This document shows positions 20,929 through 27,527 of a DNA stretch of 40,883 nucleotides, one piece after another. Numbering within the stretch: position 1 is the stretch's first letter; every line of letters starts with the position of its first letter. The translations under genes and the position numbers were made by a program. This DNA is from a virus, in UHGV virus genome UHGV-0848487; one strand, written 5' to 3'. Under the pieces are notes generated by a model. That model was given only the letters and a program-made list of their open reading frames with translations. It ran no database searches and had not been told where the DNA came from.

Positions 20929-21182
20929 ATTGGGTTAGTGTAAACGAAGCATTGCCGGAGTCAAAAGATGATTCTGTTTTAGTTTGCTCAGTAGATGGTG
21001 GTAAATATGACGATAACGGGTTCCCGGAAGGTGGGATCGATTTTGTACATATACAGGACTATTTCGACGACATTACGGCTGGGCTGGATGAGAACGGAAA
21101 TCAGCTATATACGAAACGGTATATCGAGATGGGCATAACTCACTGGATGTATTTACCGGAACTGCCGGAGGGCACTAAATGA
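20925..21182 (+). CDS. DUF551-like protein
   Basis: Preferred ATG 20925 (MNWVSV) overlapping upstream stop; C-terminal ITHWMYLPELPEG. Confidence 0.5.
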   Translation: MNWVSVNEALPESKDDSVLVCSVDGGKYDDNGFPEGGIDFVHIQDYFDDITAGLDENGNQLYTKRYIEMGITHWMYLPELPEGTK

Positions 21183-22432
21183 TGATCCTAAAAGAGCGCG
21201 GCGGCAATAACGATGTACACGCCTTACTATCACCGTCAGGCGCTAAAAAGTGGCTAACCTGCCCGGCTTCTCTGGCCTGTGAAAAAGATATTCCTAACAC
21301 GTCCGGTAAAGCCGCGGTATTAGGCACAGCTATGCACACCATAGCCGAGATGCATCTTAACCAGTACATCAAAGGTGCTGCGCTGCCGTTAGAGCGTGAA
21401 GTCGGCGCTTACGTGCTGGATGAAGGTAAAGGCCAGATTAAGGCGCTAATCAGCCCAATGAAAGGCGCGGTACTGGTTACGGCGGACATGATTGAGCAGG
21501 TGCGCAAGTACACCGACTACTGCAAAGCGATTATCGACGTAGCGACTTACGACAAGCTGGAAATGCGAGTCAATCTTACTGAGGTATTGCATCCTGGGTA
21601 TGAAGGTGTCGAGACGTTCGGAACGGCTGACCTCGTTGCTGTCCAGGAACTGGCGAACACCGACGAGCACATGCTCATTATTGGCGACCTTAAAACTGGA
21701 CGGCATCGTGTTGAAGCGAAAGAAAACAAGCAGCTTATGCTTTACGCTCTCGGTGTTTATCGCCGACTCAAGAGACGTTATAACATCACAGTAGTGCGCC
21801 TGGTCATCTTCCAGCCGTACGCGGGGGGTGCGTCAGAGTGGGACATCTCGGTCGAAGGTCTGGAACTGTTCGCTAAGTTCGCACAGAAACGGGCACTGTT
21901 AGCGCTTGATGCTTATTTCCGTGGAAAGAAGAACCTGAAAGCGTCGGACTTTAAACCGTCGGTCGATGGTTGCCAGTGGTGCCGGTTCTCTGAACAGTGT
22001 GCCGCGCGTACAAAGACGGTTAATTCTGTACTGGCGGAAGAACTTGAAGACGACTTTGTGCTGGAACTGACGACGGAGCAACTCGTAGTTGAGTATGAGA
22101 AGTTGCCGCTGTTACGCCAGCACATCGACAAGGTTGAGAAAGCGATGTCCGCCGCATTGCATTCCGGTAAGAAAGTTCCTGGGTACAAGCTGGTTGAAGG
22201 TAAGATGGGCAACCGTGCGTGGAAAGATGCCGATGCGATTGAAGTGTCACACGGCGACATTCTCAAAAAAGAGGTATTGATGACCCCTACGGAGGCAGCA
22301 AAAGTTCTTTCGGCGGATGAGATGGCAGCGCTTGAGCCGTTTATTACCCGTAAGCCGGGCGCACCATGTGTCGCAACGGCAGACGACAAACGTCCTGAGT
22401 GGAATCAGGTTAGTGAAGAAGATTTGGAATAA
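21179..22432 (+). CDS. PD-(D/E)XK exonuclease, Cas4/RecB-like with Cys cluster
   Basis: GTADLVAV ... IIGDLKTG nuclease motifs; C-terminal CQWCRFSEQC; 417 aa. Confidence 0.6.
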   Translation: MMILKERGGNNDVHALLSPSGAKKWLTCPASLACEKDIPNTSGKAAVLGTAMHTIAEMHLNQYIKGAALPLEREVGAYVLDEGKGQIKALISPMKGAVLVTADMIEQVRKYTDYCKAIIDVATYDKLEMRVNLTEVLHPGYEGVETFGTADLVAVQELANTDEHMLIIGDLKTGRHRVEAKENKQLMLYALGVYRRLKRRYNITVVRLVIFQPYAGGASEWDISVEGLELFAKFAQKRALLALDAYFRGKKNLKASDFKPSVDGCQWCRFSEQCAARTKTVNSVLAEELEDDFVLELTTEQLVVEYEKLPLLRQHIDKVEKAMSAALHSGKKVPGYKLVEGKMGNRAWKDADAIEVSHGDILKKEVLMTPTEAAKVLSADEMAALEPFITRKPGAPCVATADDKRPEWNQVSEEDLE

Positions 22433-22436
22433 AGTG

Positions 22437-22465
22437 TTGACACCTGAATAGTTAGCTATTATAGT
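22437..22465 (+). promoter_or_regulatory. sigma70-like promoter TTGACA-N17-TATAGT
   Basis: Near-duplicate of promoter at 20043..20071 including TGAATAGTtagCTATTA palindrome. Confidence 0.6.
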
Positions 22466-22518: not shown

Positions 22519-23145
22519 ATGGGTATTAAACTGAATCTGCGTAAAGTAAACACTGCATGGGTTAACGTATTCGAACGCGAAAAAGACCGTGAAAACGATG
22601 ATGGCTCAATCACTAAAGGCCAGTACAGCGCGACTATCATCCTGCCGTCTGACCACGCACAAATCGACGCGCTCTACGACACCGTTTACGCTGTGGTTGA
22701 AGAAGCGTTGGGCGCAGCTGCCGCTGAGAAGTGGATGAAGTCCAACTACGGCGAAGGTAAGCACATGGATAAATGTGCGATTAAAGACATTGCCGAGCGC
22801 GACAATCCGTTTGAAGACTTCCCGGAAGGCTTCTACTTCAAGGCGAAGGCACAGAAACAGCCACTGATTGTAACCTCTAAAAAAGGCGAGACTCAGGTAG
22901 AACAGGACTTCAATGTAGACGGCGAACAGATTGAAGGTGAACAGGTTTACAGCGGCTGCGTCGCTAACGTAAGCGTTGAAATCTGGTTCAGTCAGAAATA
23001 TAAAGTCCTCGGCGTTAACCTGCTGGCGATTAAATACATTGGCGAAGGCAAAGCGTTTGGCGGTTCTAAAGTCGCTGCCAGCGTAAATGACCTGGAAGAC
23101 GACGAAGAAGATGAAGCACCGCGCCGCGAGCGTCGTCGTCGCTAA
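22519..23145 (+). CDS. ssDNA-binding protein-like (T7 gp2.5-type, putative)
   Basis: 208 aa with acidic C-terminal tail DLEDDEEDEA; position immediately upstream of DNA polymerase. Confidence 0.4.
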   Translation: MGIKLNLRKVNTAWVNVFEREKDRENDDGSITKGQYSATIILPSDHAQIDALYDTVYAVVEEALGAAAAEKWMKSNYGEGKHMDKCAIKDIAERDNPFEDFPEGFYFKAKAQKQPLIVTSKKGETQVEQDFNVDGEQIEGEQVYSGCVANVSVEIWFSQKYKVLGVNLLAIKYIGEGKAFGGSKVAASVNDLEDDEEDEAPRRERRRR

Positions 23146-23204: not shown

Positions 23205-25385
23205 ATGAGTTACCTGTTCTTAGACTTTGAAACATTCTCCGAAGCCGATTTGAAGAAAGTCGGCTCCTACGCTTACGCCGAACATCCAACCACCGAAGTT
23301 CTAATCTGCACATATGCTTTTGACGACGAGCCTGTGCAGGTATGGGATTGCACCAACGGCAGCGACATACCGGGCGATTTGCACCGCGCGTTACGCCGTC
23401 TGGTGAAACCAAACAGCCGTATTAAGATGGTGTGGCACAACGGCTCAATGTTCGACAGGCCCATCATGAAGCACTGCTGGGGTTTTGATATTCCCGTAAG
23501 CAACACCATTGATACGATGATTTGGGCGTTTCGTCACGCGCTGCCGGGTTCACTCGACGCATTGTGCGAAGTGCTTGGCGTGTCTGCAGACAACGCGAAA
23601 GACAAACGAGGCAAAGCGCTTATTCAGCGTTTCTCTAAACCGACGCCGAAGAACTACAAAATTCGCCGCTACACTGCTGAAACGCACCCGGATGAGTGGG
23701 CGCTGTTCATCAAGTACGCCGTTAGCGACATCACCGCGATGCGTGAAGTGTTCCATAAGTTGCCGCGTTGGGGTAACTCCGAGTTCGAAGACCGTGTACT
23801 GGAACTGGACCAGTTAATTAACGACCGCGGGTTTAAGGTCGACGTTGCGCTGGCGGAAGCCGCAATTGAAGCTGTGGAGAAACACAAGGCACAGTTACAG
23901 GAAGAAGCCCAACGTAAATACGGCGGCTCGCTTACAGGTAAGGACTTCCTGCCGATTCTGCGTGAACTGGCGCCTGCGCATCGCATCCACAACGCGCAGA
24001 AGTCTACGCTTAACGACCTGCTTGCTGACGATGATTTACCGGACGACGCCCGCACGATTATAGAAATGCGCCTCGGGGCGGCATCCACTGCGTCAACGAA
24101 ATATAACCCGCTGCTGTTAGGCCGCTCGTCTGACGACCGCCGTCGCGGTTGCATCCAGTATGGTGGAGCTAAACGTACGTTACGATTTGCGGGTAAAGGC
24201 TTCCAGCCGCAGAACCTGGCGCGTGGGTACTATCACGATGATGAACTGGATAAAGGTATTTCAGCATTACTTAAGGGCCGAGCACATCGCCGTTTTGATG
24301 TAGCCAAGCTAACGGCATCTACGGTTCGCAGCTGCATTATCCCGGAAGCCGGACATAAGTTTGTCGTCGCCGACTACTCGAACGTTGAAGGCCGCGGTTT
24401 GGCGTGGCTGGCTGGCGAAGAAACCGCGCTTGATACGTTCCGTGCCGGGCTGGATATTTACTGCGTAACCGCAGGCAAGATGTTCGGCATGGAGCCGGAT
24501 TACATTAAGAAAGAACGTAAAGACTTACGCCAGATTGGTAAGGCATGCGAACTTGGACTTGGCTACGCGGGTGGTGTCGGCGCATTCGTACAGTTCGCCA
24601 AGAACCTCAGCCTTGACCTTGTTGATATGGCAAAAACAATGGACGGGACTTTCCCCGACCACATCTGGGCTGCTACCGCACGTGGATATGAGTGGGCGCG
24701 TATTCAGGAAGCCAAGCGACCACCACGTCCAGGTGAAAATGATGACCGACCATCTTATATTCTTGATAAGAAAGTGTGGCGTACCTGCGACGCTATCAAG
24801 CGTATGTGGCGTGAGTCACACCCGGAAACAGTAGCTTTCTGGCGGGATATTGAAGACGCAGCTATGGCAGCTATCCGCAATCCGGGCAAAGAGTTCACCG
24901 CAGGGCCGCGGGGAGTTAAGTTTTCGCGCAACGTAGAAACGGACAACAACGGCAACAAAGTCGCCGGTTGGTGGTTGCGGATGACGTTGCCGTCGGGCCG
25001 CGTTATGTCTTATCCGGGCGTCGGGTTGAGCGTGTCGAAAGAGACAGACGAAGATGGAAAGGTGTCCACTAACGTCCGCATCAAATACCAGGGGGAGAAC
25101 CAGTTAACCCGTCAGTGGGGCTTCCAGTACACCTACTCTGGTAAACTGGTGGAAAACTGCACTCAGGCTCTGTGCCGTGATTTGCTGGCTAATGCGCTGC
25201 TGAACGTAGAGGCAAACGGCTACCCGATTGTTCTTCACGTACACGATGAGATTATCTGCGAGACACCAGATTTACCGGAATACAATGTAGATGAACTGGA
25301 GAAATTAATGTGTGCGTTGCCTGAGTGGGCAGAAGGCTTCCCTCTTGTAGCAGAAGGTGCGGAGATGAAGCGTTATGCCAAGTAA
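23205..25385 (+). CDS. DNA polymerase, family A with 3'-5' exonuclease domain
   Basis: Exo I motif LFLDFETFS; motif A ADYSNVEGR; motif B RQIGKACELGLGYAGG; motif C HVHDEII. Confidence 0.85.
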   Translation: MSYLFLDFETFSEADLKKVGSYAYAEHPTTEVLICTYAFDDEPVQVWDCTNGSDIPGDLHRALRRLVKPNSRIKMVWHNGSMFDRPIMKHCWGFDIPVSNTIDTMIWAFRHALPGSLDALCEVLGVSADNAKDKRGKALIQRFSKPTPKNYKIRRYTAETHPDEWALFIKYAVSDITAMREVFHKLPRWGNSEFEDRVLELDQLINDRGFKVDVALAEAAIEAVEKHKAQLQEEAQRKYGGSLTGKDFLPILRELAPAHRIHNAQKSTLNDLLADDDLPDDARTIIEMRLGAASTASTKYNPLLLGRSSDDRRRGCIQYGGAKRTLRFAGKGFQPQNLARGYYHDDELDKGISALLKGRAHRRFDVAKLTASTVRSCIIPEAGHKFVVADYSNVEGRGLAWLAGEETALDTFRAGLDIYCVTAGKMFGMEPDYIKKERKDLRQIGKACELGLGYAGGVGAFVQFAKNLSLDLVDMAKTMDGTFPDHIWAATARGYEWARIQEAKRPPRPGENDDRPSYILDKKVWRTCDAIKRMWRESHPETVAFWRDIEDAAMAAIRNPGKEFTAGPRGVKFSRNVETDNNGNKVAGWWLRMTLPSGRVMSYPGVGLSVSKETDEDGKVSTNVRIKYQGENQLTRQWGFQYTYSGKLVENCTQALCRDLLANALLNVEANGYPIVLHVHDEIICETPDLPEYNVDELEKLMCALPEWAEGFPLVAEGAEMKRYAK

Positions 25386-25506
25386 ACTGATTATCGCGGT
25401 ACTGGCTGGATTCGCCGCCGGTGTTTACTGTCATGAGGGTCAGTACGGCATGATGGTTGCCGTATTGGGTATATTCATCGCAATTTATCTGTGGGTGCTG
25501 GAATGA
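25375..25506 (+). CDS. small membrane peptide (43 aa), hypothetical
   Basis: ATG overlapping polymerase 3' end; two hydrophobic segments; under track cutoff. Confidence 0.3.
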   Translation: MPSKLIIAVLAGFAAGVYCHEGQYGMMVAVLGIFIAIYLWVLE

Positions 25507-25598
25507 AAATTTACTGGTTATATGAAGAAGACTGTCGAATCTGCCCTCGCTGCGGTATCGCGCATACGAAACGGGAGGGGTGTATAGATGAGTACGCC
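25503..25598 (+). CDS. small Cys-rich peptide (31 aa), hypothetical
   Basis: ATGA overlap; CRICPRCG ... C motif. Confidence 0.25.
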
Positions 25599-25875
25599 TG
25601 AGGGGCGCGTGCAGAAATACGCAAAAGAGCGATTCGAGGCCCTGGGAGGCCTCGTACGCAAATTGTCGTACGAAAATAGAGCGGGCGCCCCCGACCTGCT
25701 GGTAATTCTCCCTGGTGGCATCATCTGGTTCGTCGAGGTTAAGAAAGACGAAAACACGAAGCCGGACCCGCACCAGTTACGAGAGCACGAGCGGATGCGT
25801 AAACGTGGTGCAAATGTTTTTGTCGTTGGTTCGTTTAAACAGGTTGACGACCTAATAGCGGGCTATTATAGTTAA
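25588..25875 (+). CDS. VRR-NUC domain nuclease
   Basis: GAPDLLVILPGGIIWFVEVKKDENTKPDPHQ matches VRR-NUC PD-(D/E)XK core; RBS GGGAGGGG. Confidence 0.7.
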   Translation: MSTPEGRVQKYAKERFEALGGLVRKLSYENRAGAPDLLVILPGGIIWFVEVKKDENTKPDPHQLREHERMRKRGANVFVVGSFKQVDDLIAGYYS

Positions 25876-25905
25876 TCACACACCAACAATATAAGGAATT
25901 GAGAA

Positions 25906-26100
25906 ATGAGACACGAATATGACCGCAAACCAGCACGTGACATCGTACCGGGTGACATGATTTTCAACGTTAAGACACGTCAACCTGTTGCCGTTGATAC
26001 GGTGTTCGTCGAGTCGAACGGTAAACTGGTTATCGAAGATGTAACGGGTAACGTTACGGCGTTCGGGCGTAAAGAGCTGGTACTCTACATTAAGGGTTGA
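25906..26100 (+). CDS. hypothetical protein (64 aa)
   Basis: ORF track; RBS AAGGAA. Confidence 0.45.
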   Translation: MRHEYDRKPARDIVPGDMIFNVKTRQPVAVDTVFVESNGKLVIEDVTGNVTAFGRKELVLYIKG

Positions 26101-26102
26101 TT

Positions 26103-27527
26103 ATGTCTAAATTTATCCGTCGAGAGTACCAAAAGCTCATGACTTCATTCATGCTGCGGCATCCGCGCTGTAATATTTGGGCTTCGATGGGCGCGGGCAA
26201 AAGTTCCGCAACGATGTGGGTGCTTAACCGACTGTTCCGCAACGGCCAACTTAATGATGATGACCGCGTGTTAATCCTCGCCCCTTTACGTGTTGCGTCC
26301 GGTACGTGGCCATCAGAACAAACTAAGTGGGGATTCCCGTGTCTGCGCGTCGTAGATGCGACCGGTTCAGAGAAGCGCCGCATCGCGGCGCTGGAGTCAG
26401 ATGCTAACGTGGTGTGCACTAACTACGAAGTTATCGAATGGCTGATTGACTACTACGGCAAAGACGACTGGCCTTTTACCGTTATCGTCGCCGACGAAAG
26501 CACGAAGCTGAAATCATTCCGCAGCCGTTCAGGTGGAAGCAAGAGGGCGAAGGCGCTAAGTAAAGTTGCGTTCGGTAAGGTTAAGCGTTTCATTAACCTG
26601 ACTGGTACGCCGTCGCCGAACGGCCTCAAGGACTTATGGGGCCAGAACTGGTTTATCGACGCGGGTGAGCGCCTCGGTTCTTCATACACAGCATTCACCG
26701 ACCGCTGGTTTAACTCGGTACAGAAAGGCAAGTCAGCTATGGCGCGTGAGTACCATGCGCGCCCGGGCGCAGATAACGAGATTCACCAGAAGATGAAAGA
26801 CATTAGTCTCACGATTGACGCCGCCGAGTGGTTTGGATGTGAAGCGCCGATTATTGTACCAGTGGAAATTGACCTGCCGAAGAAAGCACGTCAGGCGTAC
26901 ATCGATATGGAGGAAAAGTTATTCGCGGAACTGGAGAGCGGGGAAGTTGAAGCGGCTAACGCCGCGGCGAAGACCTCAAAATGCTTGCAGCTTGCATCTG
27001 GTGCCGTATATGTGACGGGCGAAGACGGGGAAGCAACGAAAGACTGGGAGAAAGTGCACGACACGAAACTGGATGCGCTGGAGTCAATTGTTGAGGAGCT
27101 ACAAGGTGCGCCGTTGCTTGTGGCTTATCAGTTTAAGCATGAACTGGAGCGCATCCTTAAGCGATTCCCGCAGGCGCAGGCGTTCGCCAAAGGTGCGAAG
27201 GGTAATAAGCAGATGGAAGCGTGGAACCGTGGCGAAATCGAAATCTTATGCGTGCACCCGGCGTCAGCCGGGCATGGTTTGAATTTACAGGACGGCGGGC
27301 ATCATCTGGCGTTTATTTCGCAAGGCTGGAATCTTGAGCACTATTTGCAGGTTGTCGAGCGTATAGGCCCGGTCCGCCAGAAACAGGCTGGCCACGAGCG
27401 CCCGGTGTTCCTTTATCACATAGTCGCTAAAGACACTCTTGACGAGGTTGTTGCCGCGCGTACAGACGAGAAGAAATCGGTCCAGGAAGAATTGCTTAAT
27501 TATATGAAGAGAAGAGGTAAGAAATGA
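26103..27527 (+). CDS. SNF2-family DNA helicase
   Basis: GAGKS Walker A, VIVADESTKLK motif II, NLTGTPSPNGLKDLW motif III; preferred ATG 26103. Confidence 0.7.
   Translation: MSKFIRREYQKLMTSFMLRHPRCNIWASMGAGKSSATMWVLNRLFRNGQLNDDDRVLILAPLRVASGTWPSEQTKWGFPCLRVVDATGSEKRRIAALESDANVVCTNYEVIEWLIDYYGKDDWPFTVIVADESTKLKSFRSRSGGSKRAKALSKVAFGKVKRFINLTGTPSPNGLKDLWGQNWFIDAGERLGSSYTAFTDRWFNSVQKGKSAMAREYHARPGADNEIHQKMKDISLTIDAAEWFGCEAPIIVPVEIDLPKKARQAYIDMEEKLFAELESGEVEAANAAAKTSKCLQLASGAVYVTGEDGEATKDWEKVHDTKLDALESIVEELQGAPLLVAYQFKHELERILKRFPQAQAFAKGAKGNKQMEAWNRGEIEILCVHPASAGHGLNLQDGGHHLAFISQGWNLEHYLQVVERIGPVRQKQAGHERPVFLYHIVAKDTLDEVVAARTDEKKSVQEELLNYMKRRGKK

Follow-up and report, generated by a model that had tools for sequence, protein, structure and literature searches.

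Sequence evidence for two overlapping microprotein genes between the DNA polymerase and VRR-NUC genes of a Kagunavirus genome

Between the DNA polymerase gene and the nuclease gene that follows it in virus genome UHGV-0848487 (40,883 nucleotides, the whole of which is called the window here) lie two very short overlapping ORFs, which raise the question of whether they are genuine genes and, if so, what their products might do. The DNA is a Kagunavirus (Guernseyvirinae) genome, with 96% DNA identity to Kagunavirus LF7074P1 (accession no. OZ035752) over the 801 bases compared, and sequence comparison identified 334 records related to this E. coli phage window. The order of genes in the operon is exonuclease, gp2.5-like SSB, polymerase, ORF1, ORF2, VRR-NUC, a 64-aa ORF, and SNF2 helicase. 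Conservation among related phages indicates that ORF1 and ORF2 are genuine protein-coding micro-genes within this replication/recombination operon; both are already catalogued, being the same genes as hypothetical proteins of related phages. The explanation as a whole, namely two genuine coupled micro-genes of which ORF1 would encode a hairpin and ORF2 a metal-knuckle protein, with the roles proposed below included, is considered likely. The features of the locus are as follows.

23205..25385, + strand: family A DNA polymerase gene, 726 aa (from the ORF list; annotated as DNA polymerase I in relatives)
25361..25364, + strand: GGAG, Shine-Dalgarno-like element, 10 nt 5′ of the ORF1 ATG, within the polymerase coding sequence
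25375..25506, + strand: ORF1, putative 43-aa hydrophobic helical-hairpin microprotein, accessory (phrog_10404)
25493..25497, + strand: GGGTG, partial Shine-Dalgarno, 5 nt 5′ of the ORF2 ATG
25503..25601, + strand: ORF2, 32-aa Cys-rich microprotein, core gene of Jerseyvirus and Kagunavirus (phrog_38225)
25542..25556, + strand: CPxCG, putative metal-binding knuckle, codons C14-P-R-C17-G of ORF2, with C14 invariant
25573..25582, + strand: GGGAGGGGTG, strong Shine-Dalgarno for the downstream gene, inside ORF2 codons R24-E25-G26-C27
25588..25875, + strand: VRR-NUC-type nuclease / Holliday-junction-resolvase-like gene, 95 aa (phrog_93, phrog_5702)

The ORF1 sequence, MPSKLIIAVLAGFAAGVYCHEGQYGMMVAVLGIFIAIYLWVLE, runs from the ATG at 25375 to the TGA at 25504-25506, and the last 11 nt of the polymerase gene, including its TAA stop at 25383-25385, overlap it. 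ORF2 runs from the ATG at 25503 to the TGA at 25599-25601. Predicted tryptic peptides are LIIAVLAGFAAGVYCHEGQYGMMVAVLGIFIAIYLWVLE for ORF1 and IYWLYEEDCR for ORF2. A preliminary description of this DNA, made from the letters alone, had a 43-aa two-helix hydrophobic peptide starting in the last polymerase codons, which agrees with the coordinates above and with the structural model given below, followed by a 31-aa peptide with a CRICPRCG motif; the motif is present at residues 11-18 of ORF2, and the length is corrected to 32 aa. The same description linked each peptide to the next gene by an ATGA overlap. This holds for ORF1 and ORF2, which share the ATGA at 25503-25506 as stop and start, but the junction between ORF2 and VRR-NUC is a 14-nt overlap: ORF2 does not end at the ATGA of 25588-25591, whose TGA is not in its frame, but reads through to 25601, so that the first 14 nt of the VRR-NUC gene lie within ORF2 and its ATG stands 11 nt 5′ of the ORF2 stop. 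A true ATGA junction at this point, with ORF2 ending in ...CVL*, is found in many relatives.

The series of overlaps from polymerase through ORF1 and ORF2 to VRR-NUC is consistent with translational coupling. With its ATG placed behind GGAG and 8 nt 5′ of the polymerase stop, ORF1 would be coupled in translation to the polymerase. GGAG or GAGG precedes ORF1 in nearly all loci; the GGAG carries an RBS annotation in phage Shashou, and in Bas72 an AAGGAG for ORF1 comes from an inserted endonuclease gene. ORF2, starting on the ATGA that ends ORF1, is preceded by TGGGTG in 50 of 51 loci, and the combination of GGGTG and the stop/start overlap would allow coupled reinitiation. The VRR-NUC gene would be started from GGGAGGGGTG in ORF2 codons 24-27. 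Within this element, GAGGGGTG is near-invariant across loci (one has GAGGGATG) and does not depend on the next gene, which is VRR-NUC in some loci and an HNH endonuclease or an unrelated 64-aa ORF in others. The 3′ end of ORF2 may be a fixed ribosome landing pad into which different cargo genes or homing endonucleases plug, and would then show how one fixed ribosome-binding site can receive mobile cargo genes.

The assignment of the downstream gene as a nuclease was based on phrog_93 (endonuclease, E = 8.5e-33) and phrog_5702 (E = 5.6e-21), and relatives carry the annotation VRR-NUC; the match to Pfam VRR_NUC (PF08774) scored 18.9 bits against a gathering cut-off of 23.8.

Coding evidence for the two frames

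ATG-initiated ORFs of these lengths are expected by chance, and this is what favors reading both frames as chance ORFs or as a non-coding spacer conserved through overlapping signals or RNA structure. In shuffled sequence, about 112 ORFs of at least 32 codons were counted per strand versus 103 in the window, and about 67 of at least 43 codons versus 72. As such ORFs are equally frequent in shuffled sequence, the ORFs alone prove nothing, and it is the pattern of conservation that constitutes the evidence. The pN/pS ratio was 0.234 for ORF1 and 0.143 for ORF2, compared with 0.177 for the polymerase C-terminus and 0.183 for VRR-NUC in the same loci, while shifted frames gave 1.1-2.1 (1.1 and 1.9 for ORF1). 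Purifying selection on both frames is as strong as on the adjoining enzymes. Summed entropy was 18.8 (ORF1) and 17.6 (ORF2) at third codon positions, compared with 3.3-7.9 at the first and second, so the substitutions are frame-specific. A search of positions 25000-26200 against Rfam generated no match at E up to 1, and RNA stability was not unusual. Together these observations make the spacer reading highly improbable, even though ORF2 is often skipped by gene callers. An RNA element in place of the genes was likewise rejected, as the region had no Rfam match and folded no better than shuffled sequences (z = 0.24 and -0.33).

The reading frames are also conserved in their boundaries. ORF1 length, its TGA stop and a valid start codon are almost always kept: all 50 ORF1 loci measured were 132 nt with a TGA stop, a further copy in ER11 carrying an 18-nt deletion and a stop. 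ORF2 starts with ATG in 48 loci and with GTG in three, the other eight being of a deletion-fusion type that uses the ATG of ORF1. ORF1 matched phrog_10404 (E = 1.7e-31) with residues 1-43 on profile positions 1-43 of 43, and ORF2 matched phrog_38225 (E = 6.3e-25) with residues 1-32 on positions 5-36 of 36; the four extra profile positions correspond to an alternative GTG start at 25491. Two other origins for ORF2 were considered and rejected. A programmed -1 frameshift from ORF1 into ORF2 is blocked in the window by a TGA at 25434-25436 in the ORF2 frame, though in some relatives this frame is open across ORF1. To see whether ORF2 is a fragment of a neighboring gene, it was compared by blastp-short with every ORF of 45 aa or more from 89 loci, and it matched only itself.

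The preliminary description had named conservation in related phages as a check on the two frames, and the ratios above bear it out; selection on both frames and the observed overlaps likewise support its view of two genuine small genes, translationally linked between polymerase and VRR-NUC. It had also suggested that they may be missed in annotations, which is true in part. ORF2, near-universal in Jerseyvirus and Kagunavirus at 29-36 aa, is without its own CDS in about half of the genomes sampled (18 of 33 annotated records in an even sample, sidste, buks, and ER11 among them), and a few genomes mislabel it '3-hydroxyanthranilate 3,4-dioxygenase'. Both ORFs, however, are annotated in many relatives, as CDSs for hypothetical proteins in Ivi, Golestan, Shashou, Bas72, and CKT1, for instance, and PHROG families exist for both. 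A time-course transcriptome of a Kagunavirus annotates 57 genes only and does not resolve ORF1 or ORF2 (PMC12645636).

ORF1, a putative membrane hairpin, and its repeated loss

ORF1 contains two hydrophobic segments (GRAVY 1.40) and models as a hydrophobic transmembrane helical hairpin, with helices at residues 2-20 and 22-42 in an AlphaFold2 model of pLDDT 86. Small-xxx-small motifs occur in both helices (G12xxxG16 and G32xxxA36), and the turn Y18-C-H-E-G-Q-Y24 is highly conserved; the window has I33 where most copies have M. The best geometric fits in a fold search were generic transmembrane hairpins with TM-scores of 0.71-0.73, which were not significant, nothing having an E value below 4.9. 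The peptide would lie in the inner membrane with the K4 end facing the cytoplasm.

Phage records with a close VRR-NUC (60% identity or more) number 454, compared with 445 that have ORF2 and 224 that have ORF1. ORF2 is present in about 98% of the Jerseyvirus and Kagunavirus records with a close VRR-NUC and is retained even after deletion of ORF1, and most copies of either ORF have 81-100% protein identity to those of the window. ORF1 has been lost repeatedly; it is kept in all E. coli-type members and absent from about two thirds of Salmonella Jerseyvirus records, and much of the loss may go back to a single deletion in a densely sampled clade of Salmonella phages. In the sidste type, a 116-nt deletion between TGATTAT repeats joins the ORF1 start to ORF2, giving MLSKLII-YYFHEEDC.... 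ORF1 was also lost with ORF2 spared in ER11, by the 18-nt deletion plus stop, in SETP3, where the start ATG became ACG, and through frameshift fusions in P0075, P0077, P0079, and P0081, the P0075 fusion being present on three contigs of 20-50 kb. These sequences indicate that ORF1 is under purifying selection where present yet conditionally dispensable, and ORF1 may be a host-specific accessory factor outside the lysis cassette, making it a candidate host-specific membrane microprotein.

T4 Imm and pinholin S21 are small phage proteins that span the inner membrane with two helices, and ORF1 might accordingly be suspected of being a lysis or exclusion factor, that is, a holin or pinholin, a type-I-toxin-like pore former, or a superinfection-exclusion protein like Imm. 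Its strong hydrophobicity, its two helices with the G12xxxG16 and G32xxxA36 packing motifs, and its dispensability in many relatives, as is often the case for accessory exclusion genes, would suit such a function. With respect to the features of holins and pinholins, at least one transmembrane helix is predicted, but the charged C-terminal tail is missing, the sequence ending in ...YLWVLE, where just one acidic residue follows helix 2, and no endolysin or spanin gene is adjacent. The gene is located inside the replication operon; in Bas72 the holins and endolysin are at 40.6-41.7 kb on the other strand, about 13 kb away from ORF1 at 27.3 kb. No homology to known holin, Imm or Sie families was detected in PHROGs, Pfam or NCBIfam. 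A lysis or exclusion function is thus regarded as rather unlikely, and an accessory membrane hairpin is the preferred description of ORF1.

ORF2 and its candidate metal knuckle

The ORF2 family consists of soluble proteins of 29-36 aa with a conserved core at residues 3-27 and a variable C-terminal tail (CIDEYA, CVL or CNR); the window has A20 where most copies have E. The candidate metal ligands are C11, C14, C17, H21, and C27. Among 59 loci, C14 is invariant, C17 is altered in one (C17Y in L013), and C11 is replaced by R in six, including the isolated phage Golestan, and by F in one; further variants are H21Y in L046, H21Q in L060, and C27R in P0086. Every single-ligand variant seen retains four of the five candidates. 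ORF2 would fold round a metal ion, with C14 and C17 of the CPxCG knuckle as two ligands, C27 as a third, and either H21 or C11 as the fourth. The AlphaFold2 model was poor (pLDDT 57), with a low-confidence beta-hairpin at residues 11-13 and 20-22 around the knuckle, and the matches to the zinc-ribbon knuckles of COX5B, S27ae, and Nop10 were weak and non-significant (E at least 0.1). Profile searching of 1.84 billion proteins yielded the ORF2 family plus two repetitive CxxC proteins and no function-bearing homologue, and a word-indexed search gave five matches, all from the same family. ORF2 probably binds one metal ion, most likely Zn, and this is predicted from the motif, as searches of Pfam, NCBIfam, and PDB sequences gave no significant match, to a zinc-finger family or otherwise.

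CxxCxxC...C is the ligand pattern of 4Fe-4S proteins, and C11-x2-C14-x2-C17 followed by C27 resembles it, so that an iron-sulfur cluster in place of zinc might be imagined. The ferredoxin-type pattern requires an invariant CxxCxxC with a distal Cys, whereas in 7 of 59 loci R or F replaces C11, and C17Y and C27R variants occur as well. C14-P-x-C17-G is moreover the classic rubredoxin or zinc-ribbon knuckle, and the best, though weak, sequence matches are to zinc-ribbon knuckles. The iron-sulfur reading therefore seems very unlikely beside a zinc knuckle.

The position of ORF2 suggests two further readings in which its main effect would be on the next gene. In one, ORF2 is mainly a coupling or leader ORF whose translation delivers ribosomes and unmasks the downstream Shine-Dalgarno, the peptide itself being functionless. 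The overlap with both neighbors, the freely varying C-terminal tail, and the near-invariance of GAGGGGTG in codons 24-27 whatever gene comes next are as this reading would have it. Codons 1-23, outside the Shine-Dalgarno, nevertheless have a pN/pS of 0.136, as low as for the polymerase and the nuclease; the Cys/His residues and the aromatic-acidic N-terminus are conserved as amino acids while third positions vary freely, and the ORF2 frame is rescued in-frame when ORF1 is deleted. A functionless leader peptide is unlikely on these grounds. The other reading takes phage Mu Com as its model, a small zinc-finger protein that activates translation of the overlapping mom gene: ORF2 would bind mRNA as a zinc-finger protein and control translation of VRR-NUC or of the inserted endonuclease. 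In favor of this, ORF2 encodes a short Cys-rich protein and extends 14 nt into the next gene, and in both MFE and centroid folds a local hairpin pairs GGGGUGUAU of the Shine-Dalgarno region with GUACGCCU, placing the AUG in the loop. In stability the fold does not exceed shuffled sequence (z = 0.24), and the hairpin does not behave as a conserved inhibitory hairpin: its 3′ arm is VRR-NUC coding sequence, which, as we read the junction variants, is wholly replaced when the HNH endonuclease or the 64-aa ORF comes next, and one stem position commonly has C in place of T, leaving an uncompensated C-A mismatch. There was also no match at threshold to the Com-type zinc-ribbon or any other zinc-finger family in Pfam, and control of this kind is judged as unlikely as the leader function.

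A metal-binding peptide acting as a small adaptor or regulator of the replication-recombination module would be our preferred description of ORF2. The nuclease encoded directly after it is the most plausible partner, but only tentatively so. ORF2 and VRR-NUC are both near-universal in the clade, which makes their co-occurrence uninformative on partnership; more distant VRR-NUC phages are without ORF2, and a literature search turned up no report of a small zinc partner of VRR-NUC. In unrelated phages the slot between polymerase and VRR-NUC holds fused TM and Cys-rich ORFs (L077 and L081) and zinc-ribbon ORFs and fusions (L067, L074, L082, and L075/L078), the ORF upstream of VRR-NUC in L074 being a true zf-CCHC (21.8 bits). 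An enrichment of Cys-rich or TM micro-ORFs beside VRR-NUC in distant phages was considered and rejected as anecdotal, the cases lying on both sides of the gene across 20-odd lineages.

It is also conceivable, if improbable, that ORF1 and ORF2 are two halves of one machine, in which the Y-C-H-E-G-Q-Y turn of ORF1 recruits the ORF2 knuckle or shares a metal with it; if so, part of the replication/recombination module, such as the VRR-NUC resolvase, would be tethered to the inner membrane. Hints in this direction are that no ORF1 occurs without ORF2 among the loci examined, that natural fusions of TM1 to ORF2 exist (P0075), and that unrelated TM and Cys-rich fusions occupy the same slot. Against it, ORF2 stands alone in most Salmonella phages, the fusions may be mere ORF1 knock-outs, and Cys-rich ORFs occur downstream of VRR-NUC as well.

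Comparison with known systems

Genes such as these two are ordinary for phage genomes. Jerseyvirus and Kagunavirus are widely used for phage therapy and biocontrol, and ORF2 is a candidate, inexpensive to test, for a minimal metal-knuckle protein with a role in phage replication or recombination. Like T4 Imm and pinholin S21, ORF1 is predicted to be a two-helix membrane protein, in its case an accessory hairpin with glycine-zipper-like motifs; unlike them, it is about half the size, has no charged tail and no homology to either, and sits in a replication operon, not in a lysis or immunity locus. ORF2 and Mu Com are both small, Cys-rich, and encoded directly upstream of the next operon gene, which they overlap, but they have no sequence relationship, no conserved target RNA structure accompanies ORF2, and its downstream gene differs between relatives.

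Among metal-binding folds, the knuckles of COX5B, S27ae, and Nop10 share C-P-x-C-G with ORF2, in which the knuckle follows an aromatic stretch, and the weak local alignments sit exactly there. Zinc ribbons of the Cys4 type have two CxxC knuckles, each on a beta-hairpin, whereas ORF2 has one CPxCG, with C11, H21, and C27 as single residues, and no Pfam zinc-ribbon match at threshold. The zf-CCHC spacing (PF00098, C-x2-C-x4-H-x4-C) also differs from the C-x2-C-x3-H-x5-C of ORF2, which had no PF00098 match. As short, lineage-restricted, and often under-annotated proteins, ORF1 and ORF2 resemble the class of phage small proteins of <100 aa, of which a review treats members with known mechanisms (PMC11323111). 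The closest counterparts are the phrog_10404 and phrog_38225 proteins, which are the same genes (Golestan gp38/gp37, Bas72_0040/0039, Shashou 042/041, and Ivi 61/60): the copies of the window match them over the full length of the HMMs, at identical positions and with identical overlaps, and differ from most Kagunavirus and Jerseyvirus copies in nothing substantial, the residues I33 and A20 being the departures noted.

Coding evidence for the two micro-genes

The region 25100-25900 showed 96.3% nucleotide identity to two 'Kagunavirus LF7074P1' genomes, 85-92% identity to many E. coli Kagunavirus genomes (K1G, K1H, Golestan, Bas72-75), and approximately 76-82% identity to Salmonella Jerseyvirus genomes. 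The local gene order is as follows.

Genes surrounding the two micro-ORFs (coordinates, strand, product)
21179-22432, + strand, exonuclease
22519-23145, + strand, gp2.5-like SSB
23205-25385, + strand, family A DNA polymerase
25375-25506, + strand, ORF1 (43 aa)
25503-25601, + strand, ORF2 (32 aa)
25588-25875, + strand, VRR-NUC-type nuclease
25906-26100, + strand, 64-aa ORF (phrog_4879, E=3.5e-45)
26097-27527, + strand, SNF2 helicase

Two strong sigma-70-like promoter matches were located on the + strand, one within 22437-22465 (TTGACA-17-TATAGT, 11/12), 5' of the SSB gene, and the other within 25844-25872 (TTGACG-17-TATAGT, 10/12), inside the VRR-NUC 3' end and 5' of the 64-aa ORF. If both are real, SSB, polymerase, ORF1, ORF2 and VRR-NUC would form a single transcription unit. 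The 64-aa ORF had a pN/pS of 0.06 (five sequences only); a DNA methyltransferase gene separates it from the helicase gene in phages Ivi, Golestan and Bas72, and is absent there from the window, phage sidste and the locus L089.

The positions of ORF1 and ORF2 in the preliminary description were borne out by the sequence, as was the start of ORF1 within the end of the polymerase gene, its ATG lying 8 nt ahead of the polymerase stop codon (11-nt overlap). ORF2 encodes 32 aa, not the 31 aa claimed. Of the two ATGA junctions described, the one at 25503-25506 (ORF1 TGA, ORF2 ATG) is present, whereas that proposed between ORF2 and VRR-NUC uses an out-of-frame TGA; the true stop codon of ORF2 is the TGA at 25599-25601, generating a 14-nt overlap with VRR-NUC.

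As ORFs of these sizes were equally frequent in shuffled sequence and in the real window, the mere existence of ORF1 and ORF2 carries no weight. Conservation in related phages, the check named beforehand, was investigated in 87 loci (8 annotated phage records and 79 IMG/VR contigs collected via the VRR-NUC protein), in which ORF1 was recognisable in 50 and ORF2 in 58, the window not counted. ORF1 was 132 nt long with a TGA stop codon in 50/50 measured copies, a count that includes the window and leaves out the disrupted copy of phage ER11. Pairwise Nei-Gojobori comparison on the locus alignments gave pN/pS values of 0.234 for ORF1 and 0.143 for ORF2, against 0.177 for the last 100 polymerase codons and 0.183 for VRR-NUC in the same loci, and 1.1-2.1 for the two shifted frames of the ORF1 and ORF2 alignments. 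Thus protein-level constraint on both frames matches that on the adjacent enzymes. ORF1 and ORF2 are bona fide phage micro-genes, and both are coding.

The start signal of ORF1, GGAG 10 nt upstream, is maintained across loci; those with an endonuclease gene between polymerase and ORF1, such as Bas72, take AAGGAG from the insert in its place. ORF2 is preceded by GGGTG 5 nt upstream in addition to the ATGA overlap; 48 loci start ORF2 with ATG and 3 with GTG, and in a further 8 its start is replaced by an ORF1-ORF2 fusion. An Rfam search of the micro-gene region returned no matching family, and its folding showed no more structure than shuffled sequence.

Annotation, distribution and loss of ORF1

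Both genes were already catalogued before this analysis. ORF1 matched phrog_10404 over its full length (E=1.7e-31), ORF2 matched phrog_38225 (E=6.3e-25), and the annotations of Ivi, Golestan, Shashou, Bas72 and CKT1 list the two as hypothetical proteins. Searches of Pfam, NCBIfam and PDB sequences generated no significant hits, and a profile search against 1.84 billion representative proteins found no match beyond the family itself. A 5.8-billion-protein set contained 80 ORF1 homologues, almost all of them of precisely 43 aa and with identities of 74% or more. The two families are orphans restricted to Jerseyvirus and Kagunavirus.

The suspicion that the peptides may be missed in annotations is justified for ORF2, since 18 of 33 annotated records in an evenly spaced sample, including sidste, buks and ER11, have no CDS under the ORF2 match; it applies much less to ORF1. 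A few records, among them GenBank PV040721 (BUCT825) and OQ442786 (JSSK01) and nr entry P0083, label ORF2 '3-hydroxyanthranilate 3,4-dioxygenase'. No peptide of 29-32 residues can be that enzyme, and the label is almost certainly an annotation artefact, carried over, we guess, from the enzyme's Cys-rich metal site.

Records matched by tblastn among 50,697 phage records
ORF2: 445 records (Salmonella 324, Escherichia 103, 'Kagunavirus' 11)
ORF1: 224 records (Salmonella 106, Escherichia 103, 'Kagunavirus' 11)
VRR-NUC, at least 60% identity: 454 records

ORF2 thus occurs at ~98% of the frequency of close VRR-NUC records, and is essentially a core gene of the Jerseyvirus/Kagunavirus clade. ORF1 equals ORF2 in number among Escherichia-named and 'Kagunavirus'-named records and is absent from about two-thirds of Salmonella-phage records. 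Sidste-type Jerseyviruses have lost ORF1 beyond codon 7 to a 116-nt deletion between two TGATTAT repeats, which leaves codons 1-7 reading in frame into ORF2; the resulting 36-aa product, MLSKLII-YYFHEEDCRICPRCGIEHTKREGCIDEYA, would be translated from the ORF1 start site. This ORF (sidste, NC_073219; locus L005 876-986, beginning MLSKLIIYYFHEEDC) has no CDS in the sidste RefSeq record, and seven IMG/VR loci are similar. In ER11-type phages, ORF1 is broken by an 18-nt deletion and by a stop codon, and ORF2 is intact. SETP3 has ACG at the ORF1 start codon, and metagenomic relatives show four distinct frameshifts, each linking the first helix of ORF1 to ORF2; one of these (protein entry P0075) occurs on three 20-50 kb contigs. 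Among the loci examined, ORF2 was never found disrupted; therefore, ORF1 is conditionally dispensable and ORF2 is not.

Insertion sites flanking the micro-genes

At the nucleotide level, ORF2 codons 24-27 (R-E-G-C) read GAGGGGTG, which hardly varies across loci (GAGGGATG in one). The start codon that follows at 5-7 nt belongs to VRR-NUC in the window and many others (14-nt or ATGA overlap), to an HNH homing endonuclease gene in Shashou (L003 1089-1580) and many IMG/VR contigs, and to an unrelated 64-aa ORF in buks and ER11. The ORF2 3' end thus looks like a fixed landing pad for varying downstream genes. A rival reading takes ORF2 as a pure coupling ORF; codons 1-23, outside the downstream ribosome-binding site, gave a pN/pS of 0.136.

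The polymerase/ORF1 junction contains an EndoVII gene in Bas72 (L004 964-1659) and an HNH_3 gene in L089 (202-699). Free-standing homing-endonuclease genes therefore insert at both micro-gene junctions (window equivalents 25375-25385 and 25588-25601), neither of which is occupied in the window, and the micro-genes lie between two insertion hot spots, surviving every insertion. Inteins occur in the polymerase of related Salmonella phages and in the helicase of Shashou.

In distant phages, the polymerase-to-VRR-NUC slot is filled by unrelated small genes, among them a true zf-CCHC ORF, zinc-ribbon ORFs, TM plus Cys-rich ORFs and a 35-aa TM peptide (L074 1268-1471, L067 1349-1504, L082 1308-1526, L077 1000-1260, L081 1256-1495, L069 69-176). 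VRR-NUC itself carries a C-terminal CxxC...CxxC extension in L075 (1495-1908) and L078 (1495-1908). HExxH-like motifs (HEAVH, EEAHGVYGH) in ORFs immediately 5' of VRR-NUC in distant L058 (1125-1514) and L072 (1049-1495) suggest small metallopeptidase-like cargo genes.

Predicted products and their possible roles

ORF1 (GRAVY 1.40) was modelled by AlphaFold2 from 24 sequences with a pLDDT of 86 as helices 2-20 and 22-42, and its top structural fits, though non-significant, were transmembrane hairpins. G12 and Y18 are invariant, conservation is highest in the A11-G-F-A-A-G16 motif and the turn Y18-C-H-E-G-Q-Y24, and helix 2 tolerates conservative changes. As K4 is the sole basic residue, both termini are predicted under the positive-inside rule to face the cytoplasm. 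A lysis or exclusion factor was considered, but the lack of a charged tail and the distance from the holin/endolysin genes argue against a holin. ORF1 is most likely an accessory inner-membrane hairpin.

ORF2 is a hydrophilic peptide whose N-terminus is aromatic and acidic (IYW[LF]YEED), and its low-confidence model (pLDDT 57) places a beta-hairpin around the C14-P-R-C17-G knuckle. Each single-ligand variant seen, namely C11R (six loci, the isolated phage Golestan among them), C11F (one locus), C17Y, H21Y, H21Q and C27R (protein entry P0086), retains four of the five candidate ligands C11, C14, C17, H21 and C27, which is consistent with a single tetrahedral Zn site plus one ligand to spare. 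An Fe-S protein was the rival reading, but the C11R/C11F, C17Y and C27R variants argue against a strict ferredoxin-like CxxCxxC site. A Mu Com-like translational activator failed its one test, as a conserved RNA target was not found. ORF2 would most likely be a Zn-stabilised mini-adaptor or regulator within the replication-recombination module. Our best single guess, a doubtful one, is that ORF2 specifically partners the VRR-NUC nuclease, as suggested by the constant upstream position of ORF2 and by zinc-ribbon/CCHC ORFs adjoining or fused to VRR-NUC in unrelated phages (L067, L074, L082, L075/L078); such evidence is anecdotal, since the downstream side of VRR-NUC has Cys-rich ORFs as well.

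Taken together, the micro-gene finding is real but ordinary. It adds to what was known quantitative proof of coding for both ORFs, the corrected ORF2/VRR-NUC junction, the distinction between core ORF2 and accessory ORF1, the deletion-fusion form, and the under-annotation and mis-annotation of ORF2. C-P-x-C-G is the classic rubredoxin or zinc-ribbon knuckle, and the sole sequence matches of ORF2 to known proteins, all weak (COX5B, S27ae and Nop10), aligned exactly on it.
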